From positions 113,071-177,070 of the forward strand of contig CAWGAO010000007.1 of the NCBI GenBank assembly GCA_963820595.1: 64,000 nucleotides of DNA, written 5' to 3'. The DNA comes from Candidatus Tagabacteria bacterium (GTDB lineage: Bacteria > Patescibacteriota > Minisyncoccia > GCA-002779875). Shown here one piece after another: positions 20,748 to 64,000 of the stretch (within the stretch, counting starts at the first letter, position 1; every line of letters starts with the position of its first letter). The notes under the pieces are model-generated. The model worked only from the letters and a program-made list of their open reading frames with translations. It ran no database searches and was not told the origin of the DNA. The translations under genes and the position numbers were made by a program.

Positions 20748-20748
20748 A

Positions 20749-44617: not shown

Positions 44618-44641
44618 TTTATTCTAAAAATCCCAGAAAAT

Positions 44642-44662: not shown

Positions 44663-44667
44663 CTGAT

Positions 44668-45429
44668 TTAATCACGAACTAGAAACATATTGGTTTGCTC
44701 AACAACAGTCCTCGCCCTTTCTTCCGTCGCAAAATATTCCCTGATACAATTGCCGCAATGCCGGCAAGCCGATGTTCCTTTTTCTCCTTCGGTTTTTCCG
44801 CAGGAATGAACGAATTTGTTATATTTATATCGCGCCATAATTTCTTCCCAGGCAGCCGTGGTAATCGCCCAGTAAGAATTTAATGTTCTCTTTCGAAAAA
44901 TATATTTTCCTTCATGGCCTTCGGGAATTTTTCCTTCAAAATATGCCATAAAAGTAAGAACAATTGGAATTTCGCGAGCTGAATAATACTCCACGACTTT
45001 ATCCACTAAATCCAAATTCCAAGCGTTAACGCGAACCCTGACAAACATCAAATTGATAGGTATCGGGTCCAAAAGGTAAGCGTCGATGTCCGTCATTCTG
45101 CCGGGGTTAACTGTTAAAACAACCGGGGCGTCGAATTTTTCCAAATCCTTGGGAATGGCGGTGTTATAGAACTTCATCTCATAATCCCGTGTTGCCTCAA
45201 TAACCTTCTTTCTTTGAACATTGCTGTCGTTTCCGTCATTCACTCTGACGATTCTGCCTTTTGCCATTTCAGCGCTCGGCATATTGGGTAAATTTTCTTT
45301 AAACGGCTCGAGATATGAACGGCCCGACTGGAAAAAACAATCTTCGCATTTGTTGGGACAAGTGCCTTTTTGGGGAATCGCCGTAATAATTCCGCTTCCT
45401 TTTGTCTTGGGGTTTTCTTTATAGGTCAT
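44668..45429 (-). CDS. hypothetical protein with a CX3CX2C (radical-SAM-like) cysteine motif
   Basis: GTCPNKCEDCFF near the N-terminus, and a C-terminal CRHCGNC. The start is the ATG at 45429, behind GGAGGAG. Confidence 0.5.
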   Translation of the reverse strand: MTYKENPKTKGSGIITAIPQKGTCPNKCEDCFFQSGRSYLEPFKENLPNMPSAEMAKGRIVRVNDGNDSNVQRKKVIEATRDYEMKFYNTAIPKDLEKFDAPVVLTVNPGRMTDIDAYLLDPIPINLMFVRVRVNAWNLDLVDKVVEYYSAREIPIVLTFMAYFEGKIPEGHEGKYIFRKRTLNSYWAITTAAWEEIMARYKYNKFVHSCGKTEGEKGTSACRHCGNCIREYFATEERARTVVEQTNMFLVRD

Positions 45430-48500: not shown

Positions 48501-49288
48501 CCGGCACGCTCCATTGCCTTAATAAGACTGATTTGTTTTAGAAATTTTTTCTGCAATTGAGGATTTACCGTATGCTCTGCCTCGTCGGTAAGCGTTTTTC
48601 TAAGTTCCGCAAGGTCTAACTTCTTACATATATTATAGAGGGCTTCGGAACCTATTTCCGCTTCAAACACATCTCCGTATTTAAGGCTAAGACGGTGATA
48701 CTCGATTTCGCTAAATACTTTATTCAGGTGCAGGTCGTTAATCTCGTTTTTTGATTTATTAAAAGCTTGTTTAAGCGCGGTTTTTTTCTCTTTTTCGGTG
48801 AGGTTTTTTGATTTTGCCTTGTATTCTTTATCCAAATTCTGAAACATCTCCATTTTGGCTTTCTCGTTTACTTTCGTAATAATGTAACTGGCAAAATAAA
48901 TCACCTTTTCCAGCTCCGGAACGGAAAGATTTAAAAGGAGACCGAGAACCGAGGGAATGCCGCGGAAAAACCAAATATGGGAAACGGGTGAAGCCAAAGC
49001 AATGTGACCCATCCGTTCCCGCCTTACGATGGAACGCGTCACTTCAACCCCGCATTTTTCGCAAACAATTCCCTTATATCTGATGCGCCGGTATTTTCCG
49101 CAATAACATTCGTAATCTTTTTCCGGCCCGAAAATGCGCTCGTCAAAAAGGCCGTCCCTCTCCGCGCGCTGGGTTCTATAATTGATGGTTTCCGCTTTGG
49201 TCACTTCGCCGTGGGACCATGACAAAATCTTCTCCGGCGAAGCGAGTTTTAACATTATAGATTTGAAATCTGTAACTTTTATATCCAT
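45554..49288 (-). CDS. rpoC: DNA-directed RNA polymerase subunit beta', with two frame breaks (near 47005-47017 and within 46180-46260)
   Basis: 47000..49288 carries the zinc ribbon [20 protein letters not shown] and NADFDGDQM. 46180..47010 continues as [14 protein letters not shown]...[13 protein letters not shown]. 45554..46183 carries the conserved C-terminus ([11 protein letters not shown]...[17 protein letters not shown]). Confidence 0.95.
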
Positions 49289-49304: not shown

Positions 49305-52300
49305 TTACGCTTCTAAATTATCATTAAACTCATCCAGCTCCACATCCAAGCAAAGACCTTTAAGTTCGTTAAGTAAAACATAAAAAGAAGCGGGCAGATG
49401 AGGATTTTTAAATTTCTCTCCTCTCACGATGGCTTCATAAGCGCTGGTCCTGCCCAACATATCATCCGATTTAATGGTAAGCATTTCCTGCAAAGTGTGG
49501 CTGGCGCCGTATCCTTCAAGAGCCCAAACTTCCATTTCTCCGAAACGCTGACCTCCTCCTTGAGCTTTACCTCCTAAAGGCTGCTGAGTGATAAGAGAGT
49601 ACGGGCCGATTGAACGCATATGAATTTTATCTTCGACCATGTGCGCCAATTTCATCATGTAAATATTTCCGACGGTTACTTTTTGCTGGAATGGCTCTCC
49701 TGTTCTGCCGTCATAAAGAGTTACTTTGCCGTCCGCCGGCAATCCCGATTTTTGCATTTCATCAATAATCTCCTCGTCGGAAGCGCCGTTTAAAGAAGGA
49801 CAAATCGCCTGATAGCCGAGCTTTAAAGCGGCCCAGCCAAGATGAGTTTCAAGAATTTGACCGATATTCATGCGCGAAGCAACACCCAAAGGATTTAAAA
49901 TAATATCCACTGGCGTGCCGTCCTCAAGATAAGGCATATCTTCCGGAGGCAAAATCCTTGAAATAACGCCTTTATTGCCGTGACGGCCGGCAAGTTTGTC
50001 GCCCACCGAAATTTTGCGAATTTGGGCAATTTCGACGCGAACCTGTTTGATGACACCGACATCCAACTTGTCGCCTCTGTCTCGGGAGAAAACTTTTACG
50101 CCGACGACTCTTCCCTGTTTGCCGTGCTCAAGTCTAAGACTGGTATCTTTGACGTCGCGCGCTTTTTCTCCGAAGAAGGACCTTAACAAGCGCTCTTCGG
50201 GCGTCAATTCCGCTTCGCCTTTCGGGGAAATCTTGCCGACTAGAATGTCGCCCGCCCTGACCTCGGCGCCGACACGGACAATTCCTTCTTCATCAAGGTC
50301 TTTAAGTTTTTCTTCGCCTACGTTCGGAATATCGTAAGTGGTTATTTCCGGACCCAATTTGGTGTCTCTAACGTCCACGAAAAATTCTTCGACGTGGACG
50401 GAGGTGAATTTGTCAGCTTCAACTAACCGACGCGACAATATTATCGCGTCTTCGAAATTGGCTCCGCTCCAGGAAAGAAAAGCGACGGTAACGTTCTGAC
50501 CCAAAGCCAACTGTCCCCTGTCGCTCGAGGCCGTATCGGCAAGAACCTGACCTTTAGCAACTTCTTCTCCGACATTTACAATGGGGCGCTGATGGATTGT
50601 CGTAAAATCGTTTGAGCGCAGAAAATTAACCATTTTATAAACTTTTTCTTTTCCTGATTTATTTTTCATCGCGATGGATGACGCGTCAACATAAGATATT
50701 TTTCCGTCCTCTTCGGCAATAATAAGCCGGCCGCTGTCATGAGCCGCTCTTTCTTCCGTGCCCGTCGCTACGCGCGGCGCTTCGGCAATAAGACAGGGAA
50801 CTGCCTGCCTCTGCATATTTGAACCCATCAAAGCGCGATTCGCGTCGTCGTGTTCCAAAAAAGGAATTAAGCTCGTGGCGATAGAAAAGGCCTGCTGCGG
50901 CGCAACATCTATAAAATCAATTTTGTCTAGGGAAATAATTCCCGGCTGGCCGTGAACGCGGGCTTCAACTTCTTCATCAAGAATCTTTCCAGCCTTATCG
51001 TACTCAATACCGGCATGCGCAATGTTGTATTTTGATTCTTCCGAGGCGTCGAGATAAACAATCTCGGGAGTAATGGCGCCTTTTTTAACTCGCCGATAAG
51101 GCGTTTCAAGAATTCCGTATTCGTTCAAGCGGCTGTAGCTTGCCAAGTGCACGACAAGACCGATAGTCGGACCTTCGGGCGTTTCAATGGGACAAATTCT
51201 GCCGTAATGGGAAATGTGAACGTCGCGCACTTCGAATCCCGCCCTCTCTTTCGTGAGGCCGCCCGGTCCCAAAGCCGAAAGCCGCCTCAAATGCTCGAGT
51301 TCGTCCAGAGTATTCTTCTGGTTCATAAATTGAGAAAGCTGGCTTGTGGTAAAAAATTTCTTTAAAACTGCGGAAAAAAGGCGGCTATTGATAAGATTAA
51401 AGGGCGTTAACACGTCGGGATCGAGCGTCGACATCCGATCCTGAATGTTTCTCTTCATCCGCGCCATTCCAATCCGAAGCTGATTTTGAAGCATTTCTCC
51501 GACCGCCCGAATTCTGCGGTTGCCCAAATGGTCGATATCATCCGGTTGGGCTTCGGGATTATTATTTAAATTAATGACTTCCGAAACAACGGAAATCAAA
51601 TCGCCAACGGATAAAATTCTGGAGGCTTTTTTGATATTTTCGAGCGACAGGCCGAGGCGCTGATTGAATTTATAGCGACCGACGGAAGAAAGGTCATACC
51701 GGCTGGGAGAAAACATATCCTCCAAAAGCTCTTTCGCGTTTTCAACCGTTGCCAGCTCTCCGGGCCTGATACGCTTGTAAATTTCGACGAATGCCTCGTC
51801 TACGGTGGCGGCGTCATCCTTTTCGAGGGTCCGCTTGATGTAAGCGATTTCACTATTGTCGGTTTTTTCGAAACGTTTTTCTATTTCTTTCGAATCCTTT
51901 AAACCAAAAATCCGCAAGAAAGTCGTAGCAGGTATTTTTCTCTTGCGGTCAATGCGAACGTAAATTACGCCGTCGGCGTCGGTTTCCACCTCGATCCAAG
52001 CGCCGCGGTTTGGAATTATTTTCGCTCCGAAAAGTTTTCTGCCGCGCAAAACGTTCATCGTGAAATAAACTCCGAAGGAACGGGCAAGCTGCGAAACCAC
52101 CACCCTTTCAACGCCGTTAACGATAAACGTGCCGTGCGACGTCATTAATGGCATATCGGTCAAAAACACTTCCTGCTCTTTGGACTCTCCCGATTCTTTT
52201 TTCGTGAGCCGCACTTTAATTTTGAGCGGCGTTTCATATGACAAGTTATTCGCTTTAGCCCAATACTCGTCAAACTTCGGCTCATCGATGGAGTAATCCG

Positions 52301-52517
52301 TGAATTCCAAAACAAATTCTTTCCCCGCATAATCGTTAATCGGGGAAAATTCCTGAAATAGTTCCTTAAGCCCTTCTTTTAAAAACCAAGAGAAAGAATT
52401 TAATTGGATTTCCACCAAATTCGGCAGAGGTATAAAAGGCTCCTTGTATTTTGAAAAAAATTTCTTTACCAAATTTATATGAGCGTTAGCGAATAATAAA
52501 TTTGCGTACCCCCTCAC
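49305..52517 (-). CDS. rpoB: DNA-directed RNA polymerase subunit beta
   Basis: 1070 aa with canonical RpoB blocks (GTFIVNGVERVVVSQL, SQLSQFMNQKN, GRHGNKGVIS, GEMEVWALEGYGA). The start is uncertain: the track GTG at 52517 lies inside the inverted repeat flanking the GIY-YIG gene, and a downstream TTG is possible. Confidence 0.95.
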   Translation of the reverse strand: MRGYANLLFANAHINLVKKFFSKYKEPFIPLPNLVEIQLNSFSWFLKEGLKELFQEFSPINDYAGKEFVLEFTDYSIDEPKFDEYWAKANNLSYETPLKIKVRLTKKESGESKEQEVFLTDMPLMTSHGTFIVNGVERVVVSQLARSFGVYFTMNVLRGRKLFGAKIIPNRGAWIEVETDADGVIYVRIDRKRKIPATTFLRIFGLKDSKEIEKRFEKTDNSEIAYIKRTLEKDDAATVDEAFVEIYKRIRPGELATVENAKELLEDMFSPSRYDLSSVGRYKFNQRLGLSLENIKKASRILSVGDLISVVSEVINLNNNPEAQPDDIDHLGNRRIRAVGEMLQNQLRIGMARMKRNIQDRMSTLDPDVLTPFNLINSRLFSAVLKKFFTTSQLSQFMNQKNTLDELEHLRRLSALGPGGLTKERAGFEVRDVHISHYGRICPIETPEGPTIGLVVHLASYSRLNEYGILETPYRRVKKGAITPEIVYLDASEESKYNIAHAGIEYDKAGKILDEEVEARVHGQPGIISLDKIDFIDVAPQQAFSIATSLIPFLEHDDANRALMGSNMQRQAVPCLIAEAPRVATGTEERAAHDSGRLIIAEEDGKISYVDASSIAMKNKSGKEKVYKMVNFLRSNDFTTIHQRPIVNVGEEVAKGQVLADTASSDRGQLALGQNVTVAFLSWSGANFEDAIILSRRLVEADKFTSVHVEEFFVDVRDTKLGPEITTYDIPNVGEEKLKDLDEEGIVRVGAEVRAGDILVGKISPKGEAELTPEERLLRSFFGEKARDVKDTSLRLEHGKQGRVVGVKVFSRDRGDKLDVGVIKQVRVEIAQIRKISVGDKLAGRHGNKGVISRILPPEDMPYLEDGTPVDIILNPLGVASRMNIGQILETHLGWAALKLGYQAICPSLNGASDEEIIDEMQKSGLPADGKVTLYDGRTGEPFQQKVTVGNIYMMKLAHMVEDKIHMRSIGPYSLITQQPLGGKAQGGGQRFGEMEVWALEGYGASHTLQEMLTIKSDDMLGRTSAYEAIVRGEKFKNPHLPASFYVLLNELKGLCLDVELDEFNDNLEA

Positions 52518-52800
52518 TCGAAAATTTAATCTTTAAGGCTATTTGTTAATCGACGTTTTAGACTAACAAATGCTTTTGCTCTTCTTTTAATTTGTCTTTC
52601 TCTTTCACGAGCATCCTTTTTGGATTTATAAGATTCGTAATAAATAATCTCAAATGGTCGTCTCTTTTTCGTTGAAATTACTTTTCCACTATTATGTTTT
52701 TTTAATCTTTTCCGTAAGTCATCGCTATATCCGAAATACAAATCTTTATCTCTGCGTGATTTCAAAATATAGAAATAAAACATGAATTTTCGAGTGAGGG
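52511..52800. repeat. Perfect 16-bp inverted repeats enclosing the GIY-YIG gene
   Basis: CCCTCACTCGAAAATT (52511-52526) and AATTTTCGAGTGAGGG (52785-52800). The stop and start codons of the enclosed gene abut the repeats. Confidence 0.75.
52526..52783 (-). CDS. small GIY-YIG (URI-domain) nuclease family protein, 85 aa
   Basis: MFYFYILKSRRDKDLYFGYSDDLRKRLKKHN...IIYYESYKSKKDARERERQIKR. The track ORF (52526..52870) begins further upstream, but the ATG at 52783 gives the family-typical N-terminus. Confidence 0.75.
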   Translation of the reverse strand: MFYFYILKSRRDKDLYFGYSDDLRKRLKKHNSGKVISTKKRRPFEIIYYESYKSKKDARERERQIKRRAKAFVSLKRRLTNSLKD

Positions 52801-53066
52801 AGTTTGTCAAAATATAGTCGTTCGTCTGAAGCAAACTTCTTATTTTGACAAAAAAATACCTAACAAGCAAAAACGCCCTTTCTAAACTTTTTTCCCAAGG
52901 GAATCCAGATAATTTATTTTTATTTACTTAAATATGGTGAAATAAACCACCCAATATTTAATAATAAATCTATTTAATCCGGACGGCAAGCCCCGCCCAC
53001 TACTAAAAATGAAATATAACAAATCTTCTAAAAATTGTCAAATTTTATCGACCTCCTTCCGTCTTC

Positions 53067-53083
53067 CTAAGGTCCGACCTTGG
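53067..53083. repeat. REP palindrome copy 1 (imperfect)
   Basis: CTAAGGTC C GACCTTGG. Confidence 0.7.
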
Positions 53084-53762
53084 TAACCCCATAATCTAAC
53101 CAAATATCAATGAAATCTTGAAAATCTTTTATGTTTTTAAAATATTCCGGAAAGGCTTTTCTATCCAGGAGATTATTGTTTTCTCCTTTAGTATAATTTG
53201 TATAGCTAGACCATTGATAATTATTTAAAAATTTCTTAATACGGGAAATATCTTTAACTCTTTTGTCCTTCCATGTCGGATCTATTAATTTAATTGGATT
53301 CAGATGGATGTAAGCAAAAATATATTTCAAATAATTGTCGTCATCCAATAATTCAGCGCCAAATCTACCTTGGAATAAACTACCGCTTCTATTATTCTTT
53401 TTATTAAAATACATCGCGTAAGCAGTGTTTAATTTTCGCATAAAATTTGTGATTCCGTTTTCGCTCTTTTCTTTAGTCAGCAAATGAAAATGATTCGGCA
53501 TTAAACAATATGCTCCTATATCCACCAATCGCTCTTTTTTATTTTTCTCCAACATTTCCAAGGTCCGACCTTGGAAATGTTGGAAATGGGAACGACCTTG
53601 AAAATATTCTTTAGTAATTACTGCTTTCCTGCCATTGCATAAAGAAAGTAAAAGCAAAAATCTTTGGTAATCATTCACTTCTAAAAAGATTTTTCTTTTT
53701 TCAACGCCGCGATCATAAATATGATAATAATTTCCTGGAGCGAATTTTATCTTGCGGTTCAT
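53067..53762 (-). CDS. IS200/IS605-type Y1 (HUH) transposase, REP-associated (RAYT-like)
   Basis: NYYHIYDRGV, HUH motif CLMPNHFHLL and catalytic Tyr region YIFAYIHLNP. The likely start is the ATG at 53762 (MNRKIKF). The stop codon lies inside the 3' REP copy. Confidence 0.8.
   Translation of the reverse strand: MNRKIKFAPGNYYHIYDRGVEKRKIFLEVNDYQRFLLLLSLCNGRKAVITKEYFQGRSHFQHFQGRTLEMLEKNKKERLVDIGAYCLMPNHFHLLTKEKSENGITNFMRKLNTAYAMYFNKKNNRSGSLFQGRFGAELLDDDNYLKYIFAYIHLNPIKLIDPTWKDKRVKDISRIKKFLNNYQWSSYTNYTKGENNNLLDRKAFPEYFKNIKDFQDFIDIWLDYGVTKVGP
53551..53581. repeat. REP palindrome copy 2 (31-nt perfect palindrome, inside the transposase ORF)
   Basis: AACATTTCCAAGGTC C GACCTTGGAAATGTT, followed by a tandem duplicate TTGGAAATG and a half-site GACCTTG at about 53595. 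Confidence 0.85.
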
Positions 53763-53778
53763 GAAAATAATTATATTC

Positions 53779-53795
53779 CCAAGGTCGGACCTTGG
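53779..53795. repeat. REP palindrome copy 3
   Basis: CCAAGGTC G GACCTTGG, followed by a half-site GACCTTGG at 53799-53806. Confidence 0.8.
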
Positions 53796-53862
53796 CAAGA
53801 CCTTGGATCTTGTCGGCGGTCGGTAAAAGATGTCGGGAAGGTTAAGTTATTAAGAATAAGTA

Positions 53863-55257
53863 TTAAGGGGTGGTTGACGCGGTTTCTGTGGTAGTAGTTG
53901 CCACGGTTTCCGGTGTAGTAGACACCCCGACGTCCGGTGTCGGGGTAACGGGAATGGTGGTTGAAATAGTTTCCGGCGTGGTGATCGGAGTTGATGTTGC
54001 TGTTAAAATACCAGACGCACCGACGTCCGGTGTCGGGGTAACGGAAGTGATGGTTGAAATAGTTTCCGGCGTGGTGGTCGGAGTCCCGACCTCTCCAAGC
54101 GTCGGGATTGATGATGTAGAATTCTCCGGAAATTCCAAGGCGCTGACAGTGCCAGCTAATGAACCAATGCCAGCCAGCGCTTCGGCTCCACACTCGCCCG
54201 GAGTAGATTTCAAAATTCCGGATTCAAGATAAACGCAAGCAGGTTCGCCGGACAATTTGTCAAAAATAGTGATGCCAGTCGGCTTTTCTTTTGAACCCAC
54301 AACCAGCTGTTCTTTAGCCTGCACATAGTCGGCCGTCATCTCGTGAGTAGTAATCGCGTCGGCGATAAATCCTTTCGCCTGAATCACGCCGTCGGCAATA
54401 ATAATGCCGGCGGTTTTAAATTGCTCCAAAATCCAGTTAAACGCTTGGGATATAACGCTGTCGCTAGTAGTAGCGTTTCCAAGGTCCGACCTTGGAAAAG
54501 TGAACGGAGTGCTGGAGGCCATAATATTTTCCAGATTCGCGACTCGCAATTCCAAATCCGCGATTTTTGTTTCGCTGTCTGTTATTCTTTGTTCGTGATT
54601 TTTGATTATGGGTTCGTCTTCCAAGGCAAGCCGGTACTGGCTTAAATTAACAAATACTAAAATCTTTCCGACGGCATTTCTATCGTAAGTTATTGTCCCA
54701 TCAACTGCTACTTGTCCTGAGCCTGTCGAAGGAAAATCTTCCAAGGCAATGCCGACTGTTTGTTGAGAAGACGTCCCCGCTCTCATTCCCACGCCTGAAG
54801 TATTTGAAACAGTAATCCTGTCCCCTATTTTGATTTCTCCTCCGTCAAGATTAACCTTGACCGGAACGCGGCCGGAAAGAGCCACGGGTATAGTGGTGGC
54901 TGTTAATGAACCGTTTCCAAGGTCCGACCTTGGAAAAGAATTTCCCAAAAGAACGCCGGGTTTTTCGGAAACAACGCCGATAATCGAGTCTGTGGAAGAA
55001 CCGGCTTTTTCAATGAAAACTTTGTCGCTTCCAAGGTCCGACCTTGGAAAAGCAACAGGGGCGACTATGTCGCCAGCTTCAAGACTGATGTCATTTGTCG
55101 GATAGTTTTCCGCGACATCGGAAGAAACAGTATTAAAAGATGAAGCGGAAACGCTACCGCCAACGTCAACATTTCCGCTGGCGAAAACGCCGCCGTTGGC
55201 AAAAACATCGCCGTTAACATCTAACTTATAACCCAACGGCGAAGTCGTTGAACCCAT
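53863..55257 (-). CDS. fibre-like surface protein with a coiled-coil and a Thr/Pro-rich C-terminus; carries three in-frame REP insertions
   Basis: 464 aa. The N-terminus ...KLDVNGDVFANGG...SDVAENYP resembles the repeat modules of the upstream fibre genes. It has a coiled-coil (IADLELRVANLENI) and three FPRSDLG motifs. Confidence 0.7.
   Translation of the reverse strand: MGSTTSPLGYKLDVNGDVFANGGVFASGNVDVGGSVSASSFNTVSSDVAENYPTNDISLEAGDIVAPVAFPRSDLGSDKVFIEKAGSSTDSIIGVVSEKPGVLLGNSFPRSDLGNGSLTATTIPVALSGRVPVKVNLDGGEIKIGDRITVSNTSGVGMRAGTSSQQTVGIALEDFPSTGSGQVAVDGTITYDRNAVGKILVFVNLSQYRLALEDEPIIKNHEQRITDSETKIADLELRVANLENIMASSTPFTFPRSDLGNATTSDSVISQAFNWILEQFKTAGIIIADGVIQAKGFIADAITTHEMTADYVQAKEQLVVGSKEKPTGITIFDKLSGEPACVYLESGILKSTPGECGAEALAGIGSLAGTVSALEFPENSTSSIPTLGEVGTPTTTPETISTITSVTPTPDVGASGILTATSTPITTPETISTTIPVTPTPDVGVSTTPETVATTTTETASTTP
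53880..54075. repeat. 93-nt tandem repeat (two full units plus a partial one) in the 3' end of the 464-aa gene
   Basis: The units carry the hairpin palindrome CCCCGACGTCCGGTGTCGGGG (53925-53945; second copy at 54019-54038) and encode a Thr/Pro-rich TTPETIST..VTPTPDVG sequence. Confidence 0.6.
54476..54498. repeat. REP palindrome copy 4 (inside a coding sequence)
   Basis: TTTCCAAGGTC C GACCTTGGAAA, read as FPRSDLG in ORF 53863..55257. Confidence 0.85.
54914..54936. repeat. REP palindrome copy 5 (inside a coding sequence)
   Basis: TTTCCAAGGTC C GACCTTGGAAA, read as FPRSDLG. Confidence 0.85.
55029..55049. repeat. REP palindrome copy 6 (inside a coding sequence)
   Basis: TTCCAAGGTC C GACCTTGGAA, read as FPRSDLG. 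Confidence 0.85.
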
Positions 55258-55299
55258 ACCTATCCCGACCTGTCCGCCGAAGAGGACGTTGCCAAAACG

Positions 55300-56925
55300 T
55301 CAATATTCATAAACGGCGTTGATTGTGCCGAAAGCGGAATCAATGCCAATGCCGTAATAAAGCGGTGAAATCTGCTGCTGCTGTTCCTGTATCCCTGCGG
55401 TCAGAATCGCCTCAAAGCCCGAAGGATTATACATATAGTATCCGTTGGCCGCCAGAGTAATGAATTCTGGCACCACTTTCATCATCTCTTGGGCAATAAA
55501 GCCATACATAACTGTATCAGTAGAAGTGCCGTATAATTGCTGATGCAAAGCGTTCCACTCATATTTAATGGGGTGCATTTGGGAAATCTTATCCAGAGCC
55601 GTTCCCTTGAGCTCGCCCAAAATATTCTTTAACCTGGCATCGGACTGATTTTCCCAAGCAGTGCCGCCCACGGTCTTACCTGCATCGCCCACAACCTCCA
55701 ATTTGTAGGTTGCGGGGTTAATTTGCCCGATGCCGACGTTGCCGCCAGCTGGATTAAGGGATATTGGTTCTGCGGCGCTTGAATACGATCTTGCCTGTAT
55801 GTAGTATCCCCAACCTGCTCCAGCATCCCAACTCATCACCATCTCGGCATTTCCACCAGGAACATCCAATCCAAATGCTGCGGGTGAATGATAAGTCAAG
55901 CTCGGAGTCGCATAACTGTAACCGGACTGATGAATGGCATAGCTCGGATTCGTCGTCCCGATGCCGACGTTGCCACCTGTTTGGAATGTTACTCTAGTAG
56001 TACCAGCATTCAAAGGATCACCATTTTGAGCATTAGACTCTCGCAGTTCAAGGGTATTATCAGCAGACCAAGGAGACACCAATGCCCAATTATGACTATT
56101 GCTGGAGGGGAAAGTAGAATACCATTGGTAATTAGGATAGTACCCTTCACTACGAATTCCGTCACCAGCCGCATATGTTACTCCATGATATTCGTGAAGC
56201 TTCGCCCCCGGCGTCGTCGTCCCGATGCCGACGCTGCCGCTCTTATCAATTCTCATTCGTTCTCCTGAAGAGATACCACTGTCATGAGTGTGAAACGCAA
56301 GGTATCCCTCGCCTGTTCCGGCCGGCGGACCAAACTCTATACCAGAAAATCCGGAGTTGGCTCCAAATGAAGCACCAGTAGCTGTCCCGATATACTTTGA
56401 AGCTGTTGCTGTTTCTTTTCCTATCTGAATCCAATCGTTATTACCATCTCCTGAGTTTATAGACAATATTCCTTCCGGACTCGCCGTCCCGATGCCGACG
56501 TTGCCAGTGCTTCCCTTTATTCTCATATACTCTGTCAACGTTCCCGCACCATTCATAACCCAAAAAGCCAAATCGGCATCATTACCCAAAGAGGGATTAT
56601 AATTTCTAATTTCTGATCCAGCCCCCGCATTTGTTGAACTGTGCTGAAAACCGATAGCCGCATAATCTCCAGATGAAACAGAATTTTGATAGACAGACAA
56701 AACTCGGGTATTTACTACGCCATTAACTCCCAGCTTATGAGCTGGCGCCGTCGTCCCGATGCCGACGTTGCCGTTATACGTCCCACCTAAACCGATATAC
56801 ATAGTAGTTGCGCCACCGGCATAAGTCTGAAAATAATAGCCGTTTGTGGTACCACTTGAAACAATCGCCCGATAGGCGCCGTTAATTGCATCCTGACAAT
56901 ATCCGGCGGAGCAGCCAGTACACAA
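55300..56925 (-). CDS. fibre protein C-terminal portion with a peptidase-S74 intramolecular chaperone domain
   Basis: Six GNVGIG/GSVGIG modules, then ...WENQSDARLKNILGEL...HPIKYEWN...YGFIAQEMMKVVPEF, the endosialidase/tail-fibre chaperone signature with the SDxRxK autocleavage site. It joins 56787..57260 across a G-run frame break near 56935-56945. Confidence 0.8.
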   Translation of the reverse strand: MCTGCSAGYCQDAINGAYRAIVSSGTTNGYYFQTYAGGATTMYIGLGGTYNGNVGIGTTAPAHKLGVNGVVNTRVLSVYQNSVSSGDYAAIGFQHSSTNAGAGSEIRNYNPSLGNDADLAFWVMNGAGTLTEYMRIKGSTGNVGIGTASPEGILSINSGDGNNDWIQIGKETATASKYIGTATGASFGANSGFSGIEFGPPAGTGEGYLAFHTHDSGISSGERMRIDKSGSVGIGTTTPGAKLHEYHGVTYAAGDGIRSEGYYPNYQWYSTFPSSNSHNWALVSPWSADNTLELRESNAQNGDPLNAGTTRVTFQTGGNVGIGTTNPSYAIHQSGYSYATPSLTYHSPAAFGLDVPGGNAEMVMSWDAGAGWGYYIQARSYSSAAEPISLNPAGGNVGIGQINPATYKLEVVGDAGKTVGGTAWENQSDARLKNILGELKGTALDKISQMHPIKYEWNALHQQLYGTSTDTVMYGFIAQEMMKVVPEFITLAANGYYMYNPSGFEAILTAGIQEQQQQISPLYYGIGIDSAFGTINAVYEY

Positions 56926-57753
56926 TACCGCAGAGGCCCCGGCGTGAACGTGCCGGTTGTCGCTATAATATTTCCGGCTGTCGATGTAATATTTCCAGAA
57001 CCGGAATAAGTGGTCCCGCCGCTGATGGCTCCGGAAAGAGTCAAGCTGGTAACCGCCGCCAATGCGCCTGCATTTTCAGTTACTGTCCCCCAGGCGCCAG
57101 TGCCTGCTGTTCCGCTGTTCTTTAAGATTTGGTTGGATGCACCGCCTGCCGGAAGATGGATATTCCCGGCTGTCGTGAGCGTGGGCAATAGTGATAGCGG
57201 TTCCAGCCGTGGCGTGCAGCATATATGCATCTGCGGTGATTGATAAGGCGCCGGAGACACCTAAAGCAGCGCTGATATGCTTATCATCAACTCGGTCTAC
57301 GTTTAAGTTTGATACTTTTGTCGTGGAAGTTATTACAAATGGAGCTGTCCCGTCAGCTTTGGTATTAGTAAGCTGGTCGTTCATGGACAAGGTGGTAACC
57401 GCCGCTAAAGCACCGGCATTTTCAGTTACTGTCCCCCAGGCGCCAGTACCTGCTGTTCCGCTGTTCTTTAAGATTTGGTTGGATGCACCAGCTGCCGGAA
57501 GATGGATATTCCCTGCTGTCGTGAGGTGGGCAATAGTGATAGCGGTTCCAGCCGTGGCGTGCAGCATATATGCATCTGCGGTGATTGATAAGGCGCCGGA
57601 GACACCTACAGCAGCGCTGATATGCTTATCATCAACTCGGTCTACGTTTAAGTTTGATACTTTTGTCGTGGAAGTTATTACAAATGGAGCTGTCCCGTCA
57701 GCTTTGGTATTAGTAAGCTGGTCGTTCATGGACAAGGTGGTGATACCACCCAA
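56787..57753 (-). CDS. fibre protein fragments carrying 351-nt tandem repeats
   Basis: ORFs 57076..57753 and 56787..57260 repeat the unit ...TTLSMNDQLTNTKADGTAPFVITSTTKVSNLNVDRVDDKHIS...TAGNIHLPAAGASNQILKNSGTAGTGAWGTVTENAGALAAV. The frames are linked by a 1-nt insertion relative to the upstream repeat copy. Confidence 0.5.
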
Positions 57754-57960
57754 AGCGCCGCTGGTTTCGGTAACCGAGGAATTTTCTAACGTAGTCCCGC
57801 CAGAGTTATAGCGAATAAGTCTTGTATCAGTTAAAGCCGCAATATGGTACTATCAACTCGGTCCATGTTTAAGTTTGATACTTTTGTCGTGGAAGTTATT
57901 ACAAATGGAGCTGTCCCGTCAGCTTTGGTGTTAGTAAGCTGGTCGGACATGGACAGGGTG
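57040..57960. repeat. Tandem repeat, unit about 351 nt (two full copies plus a partial one)
   Basis: The landmark CTTATCATCAACTCGGTCTACGTTTAAGTTTGATACTTTTGTCGTGG recurs at about 57271 and 57621, with a diverged copy at about 57845. Confidence 0.7.
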
Positions 57961-58797
57961 GTGATATTAAGACAAAGCGCCGGCAGTATAAAGTCTGGTG
58001 GTGCCGCCTGTTTGGATGCCGGTGACCGTAGAATTGATGGCGCCTGGCGGCAACAATTGTGCCGGCCGAAGTGTTGACCAAACCGACTCCCAAACCTCCG
58101 GTGAAATATCCGCTGCCTCCGACAGCCAGCGTTGCCGCGGGCGTATCCGTCGCTATGCCGACGTTGCCGTTGTTATCAATTCTCATCCTTTCAGCTGGAG
58201 GAAATCCAGATCCAACTCCTCCTACAGCCGTATAAAACGCCAGCTGGCTGCTGCCGTTGGCAAAGTTTCTTTGGCCGTTGATTGAAACAATCGCGCTCCC
58301 TCCCACTAGAAAATTGCCGGTGACGTCCCGAGTGGCAAAAACAAGCTGGGTAAGATTATTCGCCGTTGTGTTGTTGTTTATCAAAACAAGCTGGGGAGAA
58401 GAACCGTCAAATGTGGTTAAAGTGTCGCTGATTCTTGACCGCCATTTCAGCGGTGTTTGAAGTAAGTTGATTATTCCAATAACCCGTTGTGTCTAGTTCC
58501 GACGCCGAAATTTGCTATCCGGAGTAATAAAAATAGTAGAGGTTCCGGATATGGTATTTCCATCTGAAAGATAATATCCAACATAACCGGCAAAACTCGG
58601 ATTAACAGTGCCAAAACCTAAAGTTGAGGTAGCCACCCATTGCGTTGCCGAGCCGGTTGATTGAAGAAGCTAACCGTTTGACCCCGGCCCAGTGGCATTA
58701 TTGTAAATAGCGCCGGTAAGGTAGAGAGAACCATTGACCGAAAGTTTTTGAGAGGGCGTATCCGTCGCGATGCCGACGTTGCCGCTCGAGTCAATTC
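57754..58797 (-). pseudogene. Heavily frame-shifted stretch of the fibre locus, with an in-frame TAG
   Basis: By comparison with the paralogous segment in ORF 58798..61536, homologous sequence must be read in all three frames within about 100 nt (ANFGVGT / ELDTTGYWNNQLTSNTAEMAVKNQ / SDTLTTFDGSSPQLVL). A TAG also interrupts GPGSNG*LLQSTG. Confidence 0.5.
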
Positions 58798-61765
58798 TCA
58801 CCTTTCTTCCGGAATAACTCCAAAATTAACTCCTCCCGCGGATCCGTATAAAATGCCAGTTGGCTGCTGCGTTACCATAGATTTCTCTCGACCGTTGATT
58901 GAAACAATCGCGCTTTCTCCCGTTAAAACGTTGCTGTTGTTTTGAGTGGCGAAAACAAGCTGGGTAAGATTATTAGTCGTCTTGTCGCTATTTACTAAAA
59001 CAAGCTGGGGCGAAGAGCCGTTGAACGTGATTGAAGTGTCGCTGTTCTGAACTGCCATTTCAGCGGTTTTTGCGGTACCTTGATCATTCCAAAGATTCGT
59101 TGTATTCGTGATGCCGACTCCGACACTGCCGCCAATAGTTGCAAGATAAGCTGAACTCGTGGCGGTTAATTGGGTTGTTGAAGCGTTGCCGTTAATTGTA
59201 AAAAGTTTCGTAGTTGAAGCCCACGTGAAATTAGCGTCTCCGCCGAATGCCCCGCCGTTATTGTATTGAACGTAAGTATCAGAACCGGCAGCCGTACCGG
59301 TAATCCCTAAAGTGTCAGTGGCGGTCCAAGTTGGGATTCCGGTTCCTATGCCCAGCATCAGAACGTTTCCGTCTGTGGAAGAAGCGATTTTTGCGAATGT
59401 CGTCGCAGTATCAGCATAAAGCATGTCTCCGGGAGTGTATGAAAAATATCCTGTGCCTCCGTAGCCGACATCGATTATTCCTCCATTCCAGGTTCCCAGG
59501 GAAAATGTTCCGCCGTAAGCGTTTCCTGAAATGTAGAGGTCGGTAGTGGAAGCGGTTCCGGAAACAGTCAAAGCGGTTGTGGATGCGTAAGGAATAGTTA
59601 CTTTTCCGTTACCGAAAGTAACAGGCTGGTTGTTTGAAGTATTTATGGAAAGAAGTGAGCCGGAATTAATAAGGTATGCTCCGCTTGCAGTTAACTGGGA
59701 ACCGGTGGAAGTGGCTGTTCCTCCATAGTCTGTTGTTCCGAAATATCCGGTTCCCGAAACAGTCAAAGCGGTTGAGGAAGCGTAAGGAAATGTTGAAGCG
59801 ATTGAAGTCGAAGTGGCGGTGATGTAGTTGACTGTCGGACTTGTGGAAGCCGCCAGGGCCGAAGTTCCTCCCGTGGAATAAAGCCAGCCTTGGCCGAAAG
59901 AATTGGCGCCAGTGCCGCCGTAGCCAACATCAATTGTTGAACCGTTCCAAGTTCCGCCGATTACCGTTCCTAAAACCGAGTTAGTTGAAACAGTAAGATT
60001 GGAAATTGTCGTTGAGGCGGCATTTGTATCTACAGTGAATACCGAACTCGTTGCCGCGTTCAATATCTGAAAAGCTGTGGCTGAATTTGAAGTTGTCTGA
60101 AAAGCCACGTTCCCTCCGTAAACATTTAGTTTAGCCAGAGGCGTTGTCGTCCCGATGCCGACGTTGCCAGAAGTTGAAATAAATAAAGTTGAAGTGGCTT
60201 GCAAAGCGCTGGCGGAATTGCCGATTAAAGCGTAGCCGGCAGTGGCTGAACCGATTCCCGTGCCTCCACGGGAGACATTGAGATATTGTTCGGATGAAAT
60301 TGTGTTTGCATCAGTCCAATAAGCAGCATAGTCAGTCTGGCCGTTTCCCCTGCCCTGGACTCCGATTGTTGAAGTGGCTTGCCAGGAAGGAAGGCCGTTA
60401 AATGAAGTTAAAACGTATCCTCCTGTTCCGATGTTCAGTTTGGCTAAACTGTCGTTGTTGTCAGAATAGAGCAAATCTCCTTTTGTCCATGTTGTTTGAT
60501 TTGTTCCACCGTGGGTCGCGTCAATTGCTGTGCCGTTCCAGGTTCCTCCGACAACTAATCCAACATTTGAATAATTAGAAGCAAGGTACGGGAAAGTTGA
60601 AGTGGCTGATGTCGAAGTGGCGGTGATGTAATTGACTGTCGGACTTGTGGAAGCCGCCAGAGCCGAAGTTCCGCCCGTGGAATAAAGCCAGCCTTGGCCG
60701 AAAGAATTAGCGCCTGTGCCTCCTTTGTTTACGTCCAATGTTCCGATAATGGTTGCCAATGTTGTGGTCGGCTGCCAGGTCGGAACTCCGTTAAATAAAG
60801 CAAGAACTTCTCCGTCTGTTCCGCTTGAAGTTGTGGCAACTGCTCCTGCGCCGTTGCCTAATAAAATAGAATTGGAATAGAGATTGTTCCAGCCCGTGCC
60901 TCCGTAGCCGACATCGATTATTCCTCCGTTCCAAATTCCCAAGGAAAATGTTCCGCCGTAAGCGTTTCCTGAAATGTAGAGGTCGGTAGTGGAAGCGGTT
61001 CCGGAAACAGTCAAAGCGGTTGAGGAAGCGTAAGGAATGGTTACTTTTCCGTTGCCGAAAGTGACTGGCTGGTTGTTTGAAGTATTTATGGAAAGAAGTG
61101 AGCCGGAATTAATAAGGTATGCTCCGCTTGCAGTTAACTGGGAACCGGTGGAAGTGGCTGTTCCTCCATAGTCTATTGTTCCGAAATATCCGGTTCCCGA
61201 AACAGTCAAAGCGGTTGAAGAAGCGTAAGGAATAGTAACGTAGATTCCGTTGTCAATGATGGCCGAATCGTTGAAAACATTCGTCGTTCCGTTCCATTTC
61301 GGTATGTAGTTATTCGAAAGAGAAGCGATAGTAGAAGAAGACATTTTTTCATTGAAAGTTGTCCAGTCGGTTCCCGAAAGCAAACCAAACACATTGCTCG
61401 ATTTAGCCTGTGGAATATTTAAAGTATGAGTATCGGTAAGAGAAGAAAATCCCCAACCGCCGTCATTTGAGCTGGTAGCAAAATATTGAGTGTTTGCCGT
61501 AAGACCGTTAAGACTTTGAAGTCCCGCGCCTGCCACGCCACAATCTCCGCCAGTTCCAGAAATTACGCCTGATGAATTTACATGAAGACATTGCGTAGAC
61601 CCCGTTATTCCCGAAAGCGTGACGCTATTTGCTAATGTCGCGCCGCCACTAAAAGTATTAAGACTGGAAAATGTATTGGAAGTCGTCGTGCCAAAAGCGG
61701 TGCTAATTGCATTTGAAAAACGCTGTAAAGGATAAGCGAAAGTCAGAGGAAATTCGTAATCTGAT
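58798..61765 (-). CDS. fibre protein, central portion (continues 61703..64000 after a frame break near 61759-61771)
   Basis: The frame of track ORF 58798..61536 is open upstream through SDYEFPLTFAYPLQRFSNAISTAFG...GDCGVAGAGLQ, which directly follows ...GILKGNGTNPIQTAVGG of the upstream ORF. Confidence 0.7.
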
Positions 61766-64000
61766 TCCTCCGACGGCAGTTTGAATCGGATTGGTTCCGT
61801 TTCCTTTTAATATTCCGGTTAAAGTGGTTGAACCGGTTCCGCCGTAGCCGACATCGATTATTCCTCCGTTCCAGATTCCCAAGGAAAATGTTCCGCCGTA
61901 AGCGTTTCCTGAAATGTAGAGGTCGGTGGTGGAAGCGGTTCCGGAAACAGTCAAAGCGGTTGTGGAAGCGTAAGGAATAGTTACTTTTCCGTTGCCGAAA
62001 GTGACTGGCTGGTTGTTTGAAGTATTTATGGAAAGAAGTGAGCCGGAATTAATAAGGTATGCTCCGCTTGCAGTTAACTGGGAACCGGTGGAAGTGGCTG
62101 TTCCTCCATAGTCTGTTGTTCCGAAATATCCGGTTCCGGAAACAGTCAAAGCGGTTGAAGAAGCGTAAGGAATAGTTGAAGCGATTGAAGTCGAAGTGGC
62201 GGTGATATAATTGACTGTCGGACTTGTGGAAGCCGCCAGAGCCGAAGTTCCGCCCGTGGAATAAAGCCAGCCTTGGCCGAAAGAATTAGCGCCAGTGCCT
62301 CCTTTGTTTACGTCCAATGTTCCGATAATGGTTGCCAATGTTGTGGTCGGCTGCCAGGTCGGAACTCCGTTAAATAAAGCAAGAACTTCTCCGTCTGTTC
62401 CGCTTGAAGTTGTGGCAACGGCTCCTGCGCCGTTGCCTAATAAAATTGAATTGGAATAGAGATTGTTCCAGCCTGTGCCTCCCCTATCGACGGCGAGGGT
62501 GCCGGTCCAGCCCGGACTGAAAGTATGGATAGAACCCGAGGAAGTGATTGATAAAGTGATGTTGGCATCCGAAGTTGTGGCAAATGTTTGGTCTGCGGCA
62601 TTTAAGCCGTTCAAAGAAGTTATCCCTCCTCCGCCTCCTATTCCCGCGCAAGAACCGTCGGGCAACCTGAAACAACCGGCCGAAATCTGAATTCCATTTG
62701 CAAAAGTTGAAGTGGCGGAACTGCTGGTTACATTTAAAAGATTTGCTTCGATGCCTCCGGCAAAAGTTGAAGTGGCGGAAGTGGCGACAGCTGTAAAATA
62801 ATCTCCGGCAATCTGACCTGCCACCGATAGCGTCGCGAATGGAGAAGTGGTTCCGATGCCGACGCGATTTGAATAAGGATCAATTACGAAAGTCCCGGAA
62901 GTAAAATCAATGCCGCTTGTCATCGCCACTGTCGTGGTTGCCGTGCTCGAGGCAAGATTCCAAACAGTCGAGTTAATATTTAAAACATCGGAGTCCTGAT
63001 TGCCAATGGTCGTTGTGCCGTTGGACCAAAAATAATCTGAAACAGAGAGTTGAGTCGTTGAAGCTATAGTTGCGTTTAGCTTGAAAACATTAAGATTGGA
63101 CAAAGTGCTTGTTCCCGAAACGTTAAGCGCGGCAAAAGAAGCTGCACCGGATTTTGCAATGTACCAATTCTGAGATGTAATGTTCACATCTTTAGAAATA
63201 TAACCGAGCCGAACGTTTCCTGTCGCGGAAAAATCTCCGCCCACACCCAAGCTGATGTCGAAATCTCCGCTCCTTGCCTGCAGACCGGAATTAAAAAAAG
63301 CAAATCCGCCGAATACGCTCTGACCTCCGACGTTAAAGTTTCCATCCGAAGCTAAAGATTGGGAGGCGCTGATGGTTGGAGCATTCACGAGTTGGGCGCT
63401 CACGGTTCTGCCGGTTATAATTCCCGCCGCGACAACATCCTGCGCGTTAACAGCGCCTCCCACATTGAGGGACTTTTTAAAGTTCGCATTGCCAAAAACG
63501 CTTATTTCTCCATCTACTTCCAGGCTCGACAAGAGCCGGGTTGCGCCTTTAACCAGCAGAGTTCTGCCGACTTCGACTTTGCCGTCCAAATAAACGTCTT
63601 CGGTAGTAATATTGCCGTTCTTAGTTACATATGCCAAAGTAAATTCTTCCGCGTGAAGATTGTCCAAATAATCGGCGTTCAGATTTTCAACTTTTGTTTT
63701 TGAATCTACGACAATGGGCGCGATGCCGTCTTTCACGAATGATCGAAACTGGCCTTCGGTTTCGATGTGGCCGGAAATAGAAATATTTCCGCGTTTGTCT
63801 AAAAGCAAAATTTCATTTTCGTGAGTGCCGGGACGAAAACCTAAAACAGTTTGCGCATCGCGCAACTTGTTCCAAGCGCCGTTCAATGCGTCATCGACAA
63901 ATCCGAAAATGGATCGCGCGGGAAAAACCATCAATAAAATCAAGGCAACGATAAAAAGCGAAAAAAGAAACGAGTGAGAAAAAACGGATTTAAAAGAATT
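61703..64000 (-). CDS. fibre protein, N-terminal portion (partial; the frame is open to the right edge)
   Basis: N-terminal TM/signal-like segment FLFSLFIVALILLMVFPA, then beta-rich Gly/Thr/Ser repeats and the motif VENLNADYLDNLHAEEF. The frame is open past the track start at 63943. Confidence 0.7.
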   Translation of the reverse strand, partial: NSFKSVFSHSFLFSLFIVALILLMVFPARSIFGFVDDALNGAWNKLRDAQTVLGFRPGTHENEILLLDKRGNISISGHIETEGQFRSFVKDGIAPIVVDSKTKVENLNADYLDNLHAEEFTLAYVTKNGNITTEDVYLDGKVEVGRTLLVKGATRLLSSLEVDGEISVFGNANFKKSLNVGGAVNAQDVVAAGIITGRTVSAQLVNAPTISASQSLASDGNFNVGGQSVFGGFAFFNSGLQARSGDFDISLGVGGDFSATGNVRLGYISKDVNITSQNWYIAKSGAASFAALNVSGTSTLSNLNVFKLNATIASTTQLSVSDYFWSNGTTTIGNQDSDVLNINSTVWNLASSTATTTVAMTSGIDFTSGTFVIDPYSNRVGIGTTSPFATLSVAGQIAGDYFTAVATSATSTFAGGIEANLLNVTSSSATSTFANGIQISAGCFRLPDGSCAGIGGGGGITSLNGLNAADQTFATTSDANITLSITSSGSIHTFSPGWTGTLAVDRGGTGWNNLYSNSILLGNGAGAVATTSSGTDGEVLALFNGVPTWQPTTTLATIIGTLDVNKGGTGANSFGQGWLYSTGGTSALAASTSPTVNYITATSTSIASTIPYASSTALTVSGTGYFGTTDYGGTATSTGSQLTASGAYLINSGSLLSINTSNNQPVTFGNGKVTIPYASTTALTVSGTASTTDLYISGNAYGGTFSLGIWNGGIIDVGYGGTGSTTLTGILKGNGTNPIQTAVGGIRLRISSDFRLSFTAFFKCN

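Follow-up and report, generated by a model that had tools for sequence, protein, structure and literature searches.

A 64,000-nucleotide stretch of a Candidatus Tagabacteria genome (contig CAWGAO010000007.1, positions 113,071 to 177,070; hereafter the window, numbered from its first base) carries at its right end a row of minus-strand open reading frames (ORFs) that together resemble a very large phage tail fibre. The locus raises the question of whether these ORFs are one gene or several, whether they belong to the cell or to a phage, and whether the breaks between them are errors of the assembly or signs of decay. [quoted passage not shown] Along the minus strand the domain order is a transmembrane (TM) helix, a base domain, a stalk, beta-helix modules, a Peptidase_S74 (S74) chaperone domain, a short stub, a chaperone domain like that of phi29 gp12, a coiled coil, a Cys domain, and a Pro/Thr (PT)-rich tail (Table 1).

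Reading frames and domain order

A sequence-only reading of this DNA had proposed that the minus-strand ORFs continue one another, and this is borne out. From 64000 to 55303, stop-free segments chain end to end across frames, amounting to ~2,899 codons up to a TGA at 55300-55302, and 478 codons follow past the TGA. The window thus holds at least 3,378 codons of the fibre gene, whose 5' end is beyond base 64000. The two joins that had been quoted are both real. At the first, '...NPIQTAVGG' in frame 0 stops at 61766 and 'SDYEFPLTF' in frame 1 runs on from 61764, a one-base offset; at the second, 'TGTFTPG' meets 'ASAVLCTGCSAG' at 56937. The shift at 57180 consists of one additional G that the sister copy of the 345-nt tandem repeat lacks. 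From 58.9 to 57.8 kb, the true reading can be traced across frames by means of paralogous modules: SINGRE (frame 1), SSQLAFYT (frame 2), GSAGGVNFGVIPEER (frame 1), and VRIDSSGNVGIATDTP (frame 0) mirror the intact copy SINGQRNFANGSSQLAFYTAVGGVGSGFPPAERMRIDNNGNVGIATDTP. The continuity of modules and repeats is kept over every frame break.

In a hydropathy scan of the entire locus, the only TM-like segment in frame was that at 63917-63985, with a predicted topology of N-in, C-out. A TM or signal-like helix had been placed at the N-terminus of the fibre. The helix is real, but it does not form the N-terminus, as the frame still runs open at the window edge (base 64000).

The stalk that follows the base domain contains 300-nt repeats that are 95-96% identical (59450/60893/61833 and 60578/62157). 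Searches of Pfam, PHROG, NCBIfam, and PDB sequences gave no usable match for the ~1,700-aa stalk, and the same databases yielded nothing usable for the N-terminal 765 aa or the 1,002-aa stalk segment when these were taken as units. Matches of these regions to HYR and WD40 were under the cut-off and were rejected.

Modules of the GNVGIGT type, ~11 in number, are found from 55.26 to 62.87 kb. A regular-expression search gave ten hits (55255-60168), to which we add NRVGIGTTSP at 62840-62869 and a frameshifted IANFGVGT at 58495-58518. The modules had been described as encoded by a DNA string that recurs about ten times between 55.7 and 62.9 kb. The 17-mer in question, CCGATGCCGACGTTGCC, has a chance expectation of 0.05 and occurs five times exactly, eight times at two mismatches or fewer, and nine times at three or fewer, over a span of 55277-60168. 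The count of about ten therefore holds only if near-matches are included, and the DNA string ends at 60168, short of the limit that had been given. We observed that the 17-mer is identical in five modules whose 54-nt flanks are just 67-74% identical. This identity could come from codon preference, or the 17-mer could be a recombination substrate for module shuffling.

The best matches in a search of PDB sequences with phmmer were mosaic adhesive trimer (MAT) fibres of Bdellovibrio, 8OND (E 1.5e-6), 8OML (E 3.3e-5), and 8OJN (E 4e-3), and these matches run through the ERMRID..GNVGIGT..P..KL modules. The spacing of the published MAT motif, V-G-G/N-pi-x-x-P-x-x-x-L, is one residue off that of GNVGIGTTxP. 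PHROG tail-fibre families match this module region as well.

The S74 chaperone signature that had been noted was confirmed by a Pfam search, in which PF13884 matched residues 428-488 of the ORF 55300-56925 (E 1.2e-11; 45.2 bits against a cut-off of 22; profile positions 1-56 of 58). The S-D-x-x-x-K motif is intact, as SDARLK (55627-55644) at the start of the domain, and the domain aligns with 'SDERLK...GFIAQQ' of the tail fibre 8JOV. No relative turned up when metagenomes were scanned with the C-terminal 591 aa. Both the SDxxxK motif and its mechanism have been described (PMC10769870, PMC4690869); in pb1 of phage T5, folding starts from the C-terminal chaperone, and cleavage by the Ser/Lys pair needs a properly formed trimer (PMC4690869).

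Table 1. Features of the fibre locus (window coordinates) and of the split-intein relatives (coordinates of each relative).
Feature	Position	Strand	Basis or remark
Whole locus, read as one gene	53866..64000	minus	Open at right edge; segment chain, junction peptides, single TM
Frame 0 segment	64000-61706	minus	765 codons, open at window edge
Frame 1 segment	61806-58801	minus	1,002 codons
Short segments in alternating frames	58.9-56.8 kb	minus	Stop-free segment listing
Frame 1 segment including S74	57075-55303	minus	591 codons
TM anchor helix, VFSHSFLFSLFIVALILLMVFPA	63917..63985	minus	Hydropathy scan; aligns with the TM of ~30 homologues
Membrane-proximal base domain, DAQTVLGFRPGTHENEILLLDK...LEVDGEISVFGNA	63485..63859	minus	Conserved columns of alignment A1
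Repetitive Ser/Thr/Gly-rich stalk	58801..63484	minus	One frameshift at 61765; repeat search
Frameshift-dense stretch	56790..58900	minus	11 of ~12 breaks, and TAG 58670-58672
Tandem repeat of ~345 nt, three copies; 115-nt cores	57286-57400, 57631-57745, 57852-57966	minus	Inside the frameshift-dense stretch
Diverged copy of the 58.9-59.1 kb module	within 56790..58900	minus
Five consecutive ERMRID..GNVGIGTTxPxxKL modules	55723..56772	minus	Beside the S74 chaperone domain
G-N-V-G-I-G codons of the five modules	56752-56772, 56485-56505, 56218-56238, 55954-55974, 55723-55743	minus
Additional modules	62840-62869, 60148-60168, 59110-59130, 58763-58783, 58148-58168	minus
Peptidase_S74 intramolecular chaperone	55462..55644	minus	Pfam PF13884
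Predicted scissile/nucleophilic Ser codon	55642-55644	minus	SDARLK
Predicted Lys codon	55627-55629	minus	SDARLK
Lone TGA dividing the S74 ORF from the in-frame ORF that follows	55300..55302	minus
Predicted phi29-gp12-type (Peptidase_G2-like) self-cleaving chaperone, from SSDVAENY	54637..55125	minus	AF2, Foldseek, hhalign
Downstream ORF tail	53866..54636	minus	AF2 secondary structure; alignments A2, A3
Coiled coil	54523-54597	minus	AF2 secondary structure
Small Cys-containing beta domain	54187-54249	minus	AF2/alignments
Pro/Thr-rich end	end of tail 53866..54636	minus
Three REP-like hairpins in the downstream ORF	54479-54495, 54917-54933, 55031-55047		Read in frame as FPRSDLG
Split-intein regions of relatives	L009 13791-16660; L011 2221-5070; L012 205-2640

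Family membership and genomic setting

A query consisting of the first 450 codons matched 71 proteins and ten genomic loci. Nearly all of the named sources among the 71 are Patescibacteria (Tagabacteria, Paceibacterota, Wolfebacteria, Zambryskibacteria, Yanofskybacteria, and others), apart from one entry labelled Omnitrophica and two named simply 'bacterium'. When 1.84 billion cluster representatives were searched with a profile, 284 proteins matched at E<=1e-30, and at E<=1e-10 the number was 3,512. Members of the family are built from a cytoplasmic helix-turn-helix (HTH) region, a variable linker, a TM helix, and a highly conserved domain of ~125 aa, which is the base domain of the window protein. 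Alignment of 31 homologues (A1) gave 20 invariant and 31 near-invariant columns in the base-domain stretch, and the window matches the consensus that follows the TM helix, GFRPGTH.NE.LLLDK.GN.SI.GH.ETEGQ...APIVVDS.TKVENLNADYLD...FTLA.VTKNGN. In this part, the window protein is 69% identical to that of Tagabacteria L007 and to the ENA locus L014. Of the 31 homologues aligned, 27 have the HTH motif PYSxEYLSLLARKxKLxAKKxGxxWxTT, and several give a Pfam HTH_17 match. By analogy with these homologues, the cytoplasmic HTH of the window protein is predicted to lie to the right of base 64000; its role may be that of an anchor, a sensor output, or a tether to the nucleoid.

Full-length members, in which the match begins at the N-terminus, range from 1,200 to 7,920 aa, so that a length of over 3,300 codons is nothing unusual for a gene of this Patescibacteria fibre family. 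Intact homologues in single ORFs include one of 1,654 aa from Zambryskibacteria, on a 464-kb contig, and one of 2,226 aa from Yanofskybacteria; these two and the larger members have a common N-terminal architecture. When 65 members of at least 1,200 aa were scanned for motifs, S74 was found in 20 and the gp12-like domain in five, with both in none. Most complete members terminate in a PT/ST-rich tail (Pro/Thr- or Ser/Thr-rich), and the window locus has such a tail too.

Given these tail-fibre parts, the locus might instead be a prophage or phage-derived module, such as that of a tailocin, with its other genes past the right edge. The S74 and gp12-type chaperones, the PHROG tail-fibre matches, and the cyanophage-like modules would suit such an origin, the right flank is outside our view, and a Y1 transposase gene and a GIY-YIG gene adjoin the locus. 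The last ~450 aa match PHROG tail-fibre families, with 23-27% identity to cyanophage and pelagiphage fibres, and the base domain is 34-39% identical over ~130 aa to an internal part of a 1,988-aa 'YadA domain structural protein' of T4-like cyanophages. Judged from these alignments, the phage similarity is real, partial, and distant, and it extends to the C-terminal ~450 aa, the base domain, and the two chaperones.

Nevertheless, we consider a prophage or tailocin origin very improbable. A TM anchor, together with the cytoplasmic HTH of the homologues, is ill-suited to a virion fibre, and the anchor and base module has no relative (0 matches) in 2.9 million IMG/VR viral contigs. The left 54 kb of the window hold rpoB, rpoC, dnaG, rpoD, obg, and metabolic genes. 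Pfam revealed no phage structural, terminase, portal, or integrase family among 39 window ORFs, and ten further ORFs (seven without a Pfam match and three not Pfam-scanned) had no PHROG match. In total, the 49 window ORFs tested include no virion, lysis, or integrase family, in agreement with the earlier statement that no capsid, terminase, portal, or integrase gene was to be seen in the window.

Intact homologues stand among housekeeping genes in five other genomes, and the 5' neighbour in homologues is GatB or another housekeeping gene. The arrangement is SecA...Obg-GatB-fibre (1,654 aa)...MurJ in Zambryskibacteria (L005), SecA...Obg-GatB-fibre in Wolfebacteria (L002), GatB-signal peptidase-fibre in L014, and RF2, S2...fibre (2,226 aa) in Yanofskybacteria (L009). 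The order of GatB then fibre is thus kept in three Patescibacteria lineages (L002, L005, and L014), which points to vertical descent of the fibre gene and against mobility. The window copy is placed elsewhere, near rpoB. The proposal of the sequence-only reading that this is a cellular surface fibre made from phage-fibre parts, one gene and no prophage, is therefore supported by the intact homologues, the housekeeping neighbours, the lack of viral-contig relatives, and the frameshifts in essential genes that are described below.

The TGA, the split inteins, and the frame breaks

Past the TGA lies the ORF 53863-55257, which had been taken for a second fibre-like gene. The ORF does exist; its separateness is doubtful, and it is probably the C-terminus of the same protein. 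The stop-free frame, 53866-55299, is that of the S74 ORF, and there is no spacer between the two. An AlphaFold2 (AF2) model of the downstream ORF is confident for residues 60-220, with values of pLDDT (predicted local distance difference test) that are mostly >85 and dip in two loop blocks bearing repetitive extragenic palindrome (REP) insertions. With this model, the best Foldseek match in the PDB was 3SUC, the uncleaved (pre-mature) form of phi29 gp12 (E 8e-5), and the best in BFVD was a 'preneck appendage protein' (E 2e-13). The ORF has no Pfam family at E<=0.01, and so no PF11962 match. However, hhalign aligned a 51-homologue profile with gp12 residues 687-742 at 92% probability (E 6e-7), pairing SSDVAENY...IIGVVSEKPGVLLG with WSDFAEYF...IIGVISETAGFVLG of gp12. 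We take this stretch of gp12 to contain its self-cleavage site. The fold, together with the alignment over that stretch, points to a second, different chaperone domain, for which self-cleavage is predicted.

At least 576 metagenomic loci encode the gp12-like domain. Most of the 70 loci in which we located it by motif have hundreds to >2,200 residues upstream in frame, the shortest being cut by a contig edge, and S74 is upstream in 0/70. The downstream ORF of the window has just 58 residues before the cleavage motif, so this headless copy would be abnormal as a stand-alone gene. The stretch that comes after S74 within the single ORFs P0311 and P0320 is homologous to residues 245-370 of this ORF (E 1e-14).

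Relatives of the locus suggest how the two ORFs may belong together. In L009 (Yanofskybacteria), L011 (Giovannonibacteria LCIV01000014), and L012 (a Logan contig), the fibre gene ends with the N-terminal half of an intein (CVTGDTRL...HPYL...). This N-half stands behind the S74 region in L009 and L011; in L012 it ends a gene that is incomplete because the contig stops there. In all three, the downstream gene opens with an intein C-half (...VYDIEVEGTHNF.GN.I.AHN/T), and after it come a short stub and the gp12-like domain. Between the intein halves sit small ORFs, a PD-(D/E)XK nuclease gene, and, in L011, an NYN gene, an arrangement that looks like a split intein whose homing-nuclease function is carried by free-standing genes. 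S74 followed by an intein N-half is also seen in P0047 (WWE3) and in P0122-P0124.

The positions of these halves can be compared with that of the TGA. The N-half begins 115-125 residues past the Ser of SDxxxK in P0002, P0047, and P0122-P0124, and, by nucleotide positions, 110 and 115 residues past it in L009 and L011; the window TGA is 113 residues past the Ser of SDARLK. Along its full length the L012 protein, P0199, shares 36-41% identity with the window ORF, and a Y1 transposase gene comes next in both cases. When the printed sequences were compared, the post-S74 region of P0263 and P0271 visibly matched the C-terminal half of the intein-C protein of L009. In the window itself there is no Intein_splicing match by Pfam, and the translation of 55.2-55.4 kb contains no intein-half motif, with the single TGA standing there instead. 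Taken together, the intein-flanked halves, the matching positions, and the post-S74 homology argue that the ORFs on either side of the TGA are the counterparts of the two exteins of a single protein. We think it fairly probable that this is so, in which case the window would represent the intein-free form and the TGA would be a sequence error or a recent nonsense change.

Alternatively, there may be two or more real genes, with the S74 fibre ending at the TGA and the ORF 53863-55257 encoding a separate protein. Such a protein could be a stand-alone chaperone, a tail subunit, or a spare C-terminal cassette that replaces the S74 end by recombination at the GNVGIG-coding string. Indeed, the recorded gene call, on a 191,993-nt contig, is a separate protein of 464 aa (P0197), identical to the ORF; S74 and the gp12-like domain behave as alternative endings within the family, together in no single ORF; and a 17-mer that is exact in five modules amid diverged flanks (67-74% identical) suits recombination. 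We nonetheless regard separate genes as somewhat unlikely. The hydropathy scan found no signal peptide or anchor in the downstream ORF, the annotated ATG falls inside a GxVGIG module that begins directly behind the TGA, and a 'mature' part of 58 residues would make no sense for a fibre. Moreover, the homologous protein starts with an intein C-half in three relatives and is therefore made for ligation to a preceding protein. A promoter and terminator scan of 52.4-56.0 kb gave no difference from shuffled sequence and is thus silent on a boundary at the TGA.

For the one-gene reading, the frame breaks have to be explained. There are ~12 frameshifts in the fibre locus and one in-frame TAG (58670-58672), which occupies the place where the motif GSNG-Q-LLQSTG calls for CAG. 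Frameshifts are also present in other genes of the window. The rpoC gene (45554-49288) is frameshifted inside the universally conserved GMKG stretch and has a second break at 46180; dnaG (43850-44700) has at least two frameshifts; obg (34817-35774) changes frame at ~35050; and the methylmalonyl-CoA mutase gene (9070-10649) does so at ~9996, where the Pfam profile coordinates are contiguous (212/213). The rpoB gene (49305-52517) is unbroken. The closest relative, L014 (ENA 'contig_103030'), is likewise fragmented, including its GatB and signal peptidase genes. Because the breaks in rpoC, dnaG, obg, and the mutase gene would not be survivable, the assembly must have indel errors, and most of the breaks in the fibre locus are probably artefacts of the same kind.

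An alternative genetic code was considered and is not supported. Under table 11, rpoB is open for 1,070 codons. Of the 40 stop-free segments that reach 200 codons or more, 13 end in TGA and five in TAG, which is consistent with ordinary usage of stops, and the internal stop, a TAG, stands at a position that expects Q.

The locus could also be a decaying pseudogene, that is, a once-intact fibre gene that is being lost and whose frameshifts, TAG, TGA, and REP insertions are genuine. The number of breaks, ~12 frameshifts and a nonsense codon with 11 within 2 kb, is far above the rate in rpoC, dnaG, and obg, and REP hairpins have invaded the downstream ORF beside the Y1 transposase gene. Yet essential genes of the same window are broken too, and the breaks by themselves are therefore no sign of decay. 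Stretches of 765 and 1,002 codons are still open, and every module reads as a good family member once the frames are corrected. The REP insertions are in frame and in loops, at places of variable length among homologues and in low-pLDDT parts of the model. Thus, we judge decay to be improbable and prefer a single gene in a flawed assembly.

Several observations weigh against that preference. The breaks are unevenly spread, with 11 in ~2 kb (56.9-58.9 kb), roughly 10 times the density in the housekeeping genes (~0.5 breaks per kb), and only one in the 5.1 kb upstream in the fibre gene; local decay or a mixture of strains may lie behind part of them. The in-frame TAG and TGA are substitutions and not indels. 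Among the 387 proteins and the relative loci that were motif-scanned, none has S74 joined to the gp12-like domain in an unbroken ORF, so that support for two chaperones in a row comes only from the loci with split inteins. Both the HTH part and the right flank lie past the window edge at base 64000. Finally, the AF2 monomer model of the anchor and base region reached a pLDDT of 61, with values <40 in the most conserved part; it was left out of the fold search.

The surroundings of the locus contain further elements. Six copies of a near-perfect hairpin, TTTCCAAGGTC-(C/G)-GACCTTGGAAA, are present at 53067-55047, with none elsewhere in the 64 kb. Two of the six flank a Y1/IS200-like transposase ORF (53067-53798), one is within it, and three are within the ORF 53863-55257. 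This pattern looks like a REP-associated tyrosine transposase (RAYT)/REP system inserting into coding sequence and is reminiscent of the Rickettsia palindromic elements. A GIY-YIG nuclease ORF (52526-52870; Pfam E 6e-17) is situated between the Y1 transposase gene and rpoB. Farther to the left, the region 9070-30680 encodes glycine reductase B subunits including GrdB (19446-21807), methylmalonyl-CoA mutase, a thiolase-like protein, and an enzyme of the pyruvate:ferredoxin oxidoreductase type (11745-13475). This metabolism is unusually rich for Patescibacteria and may reflect horizontal acquisition or a chimeric contig. Within 22300-24599, an unannotated ORF of 341 aa is followed by a WxL-interacting-protein-like peptidoglycan-binding ORF (23365-24006) and a LysM ORF (24003-24599), which may form another cell-envelope cluster.

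Known fibres, proposed mechanism, and meaning

The closest known counterparts are the MAT fibres of Bdellovibrio bacteriovorus, in their S74 subgroup (Caulton et al. 2024; PDB 8OJN, 8OND, 8OML; PMC10769870). MAT fibres are trimers that are encoded in the chromosome and exposed at the cell surface, and the domain nearest the cell is conserved. They end either in S74, whose cleavage was shown and is stopped by a Ser-to-Ala change, or in other tips (PMC10769870). The supplement lists S74-like relatives in Micavibrio, Omnitrophica, and others, and term searches of the article text and of parts of the supplement returned no Patescibacteria, Parcubacteria, or Saccharibacteria (PMC10769870).

Like the window fibre, the MAT fibres are chromosomal and combine a conserved cell-near domain of comparable size (~130 aa) with a long stalk and an S74 end that has SDxxxK. 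The two also have in common beta-helix modules with a V-G-x-G...P...L loop motif, and the MAT fibres are the best PDB sequence matches. Bdellovibrio and the window organism, moreover, both live by contact with other cells. The MAT fibres differ in having a signal peptide, whereas the window fibre has a TM helix (and, in homologues, a cytoplasmic HTH). They are typically ~1,000 aa; the window fibre is at least three times larger, has an unrelated stalk, and, unlike them, has a second, gp12-type chaperone and a PT-rich tail past S74. In the window, the conserved ~125-aa domain, a candidate counterpart of the MAT domain, follows an internal TM helix that is preceded by a predicted cytoplasmic region and is no signal peptide.

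The fibres and spikes of phages that carry S74, such as the K1F endosialidase (3GW6) and T5 pb1 (4UW8; PMC4690869), have the chaperone domain and the Ser/Lys motif in common with the window fibre, and presumably also the logic of folding followed by cleavage. In contrast to them, the window fibre has a membrane anchor and a cellular neighbourhood with no phage genes nearby, and its coding region extends past S74. The phi29 gp12 appendage (3SUC; PF11962) has the same fold as the downstream domain, with W-S-D-F-A-E-Y aligned to S-S-D-V-A-E-N-Y and IIGVIS to IIGVVS. Unlike gp12, the window domain has no PF11962 match, is preceded by S74 and a 58-residue stub, and is followed by a coiled coil, the Cys domain, and the PT-rich tail. 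In the split-intein relatives L009, L011, and L012 the exteins are separated by the intein halves, whereas in the window they are adjacent, in frame, and intein-free.

The eukaryotic membrane-bound transcription factor MYRF also combines a DNA-binding-type domain, a membrane span, and S74 in one protein, and its structure 7DC3 gave a weak sequence match (E 1.3). However, its topology differs. The HTH and S74 of the window family are on opposite sides of the membrane, and cleavage therefore cannot free the HTH. The resemblance is a curiosity, with no evidence of a relationship.

From the literature on S74 and gp12 we infer a possible mechanism, in which trimer formation, cleavage, surface exposure, and adhesion are all predicted properties of the fibre. 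Three chains would be inserted into the membrane, N-in and C-out. The C-terminal chaperone domains would trimerise first and act as a template on which the three chains fold in the direction of the membrane. After correct formation of the helix, the Ser/Lys dyad of SDARLK would cut the chain, and departure of the chaperone part would expose the fibre tip. The fibre would then project from the small cell, and its tip would bind a surface structure of the episymbiont's host cell. This proposed action parallels that of phage receptor-binding proteins and of the Bdellovibrio MAT fibres.

A broader proposal, which we offer as a speculation and think unlikely in its full form, is that Paceibacteria-type CPR possess lineage-wide giant fibres of up to ~7,900 aa that act as an organelle of host contact. 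The fibres would be wired by the TM helix to a cytoplasmic domain of DNA-binding type for inward signalling. One sub-branch would mature through S74 and then through the phi29-gp12-type chaperone, and in some genomes the C-terminus would be joined by a split intein with a PD-(D/E)XK cassette. If this is true, split-intein joining would be a mobile means of exchanging fibre ends.

That a bacterial S74 fibre can be related to phage fibres is already known from the work on Bdellovibrio in 2024. Literature searches for such fibres in Patescibacteria returned nothing relevant; as far as those searches go, the Patescibacteria TM and HTH family, its sizes of up to 7,920 aa, the two chaperone types, and the split-intein junction are undescribed. 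The finding also bears on annotation, since repeats and long-read indels routinely shatter such genes into 'hypothetical proteins'. A split-intein link between two chaperone cassettes, as in the relatives, would be an unusual instance of protein splicing in a surface structure. To our knowledge, little is understood of how ultrasmall CPR bacteria recognise and hold their hosts beyond the use of type IV pili. A chromosomally inherited and widespread family of phage-fibre-like proteins would provide concrete candidates for the determinant of attachment and specificity, and it would extend the finding on MAT fibres from predators to episymbionts.

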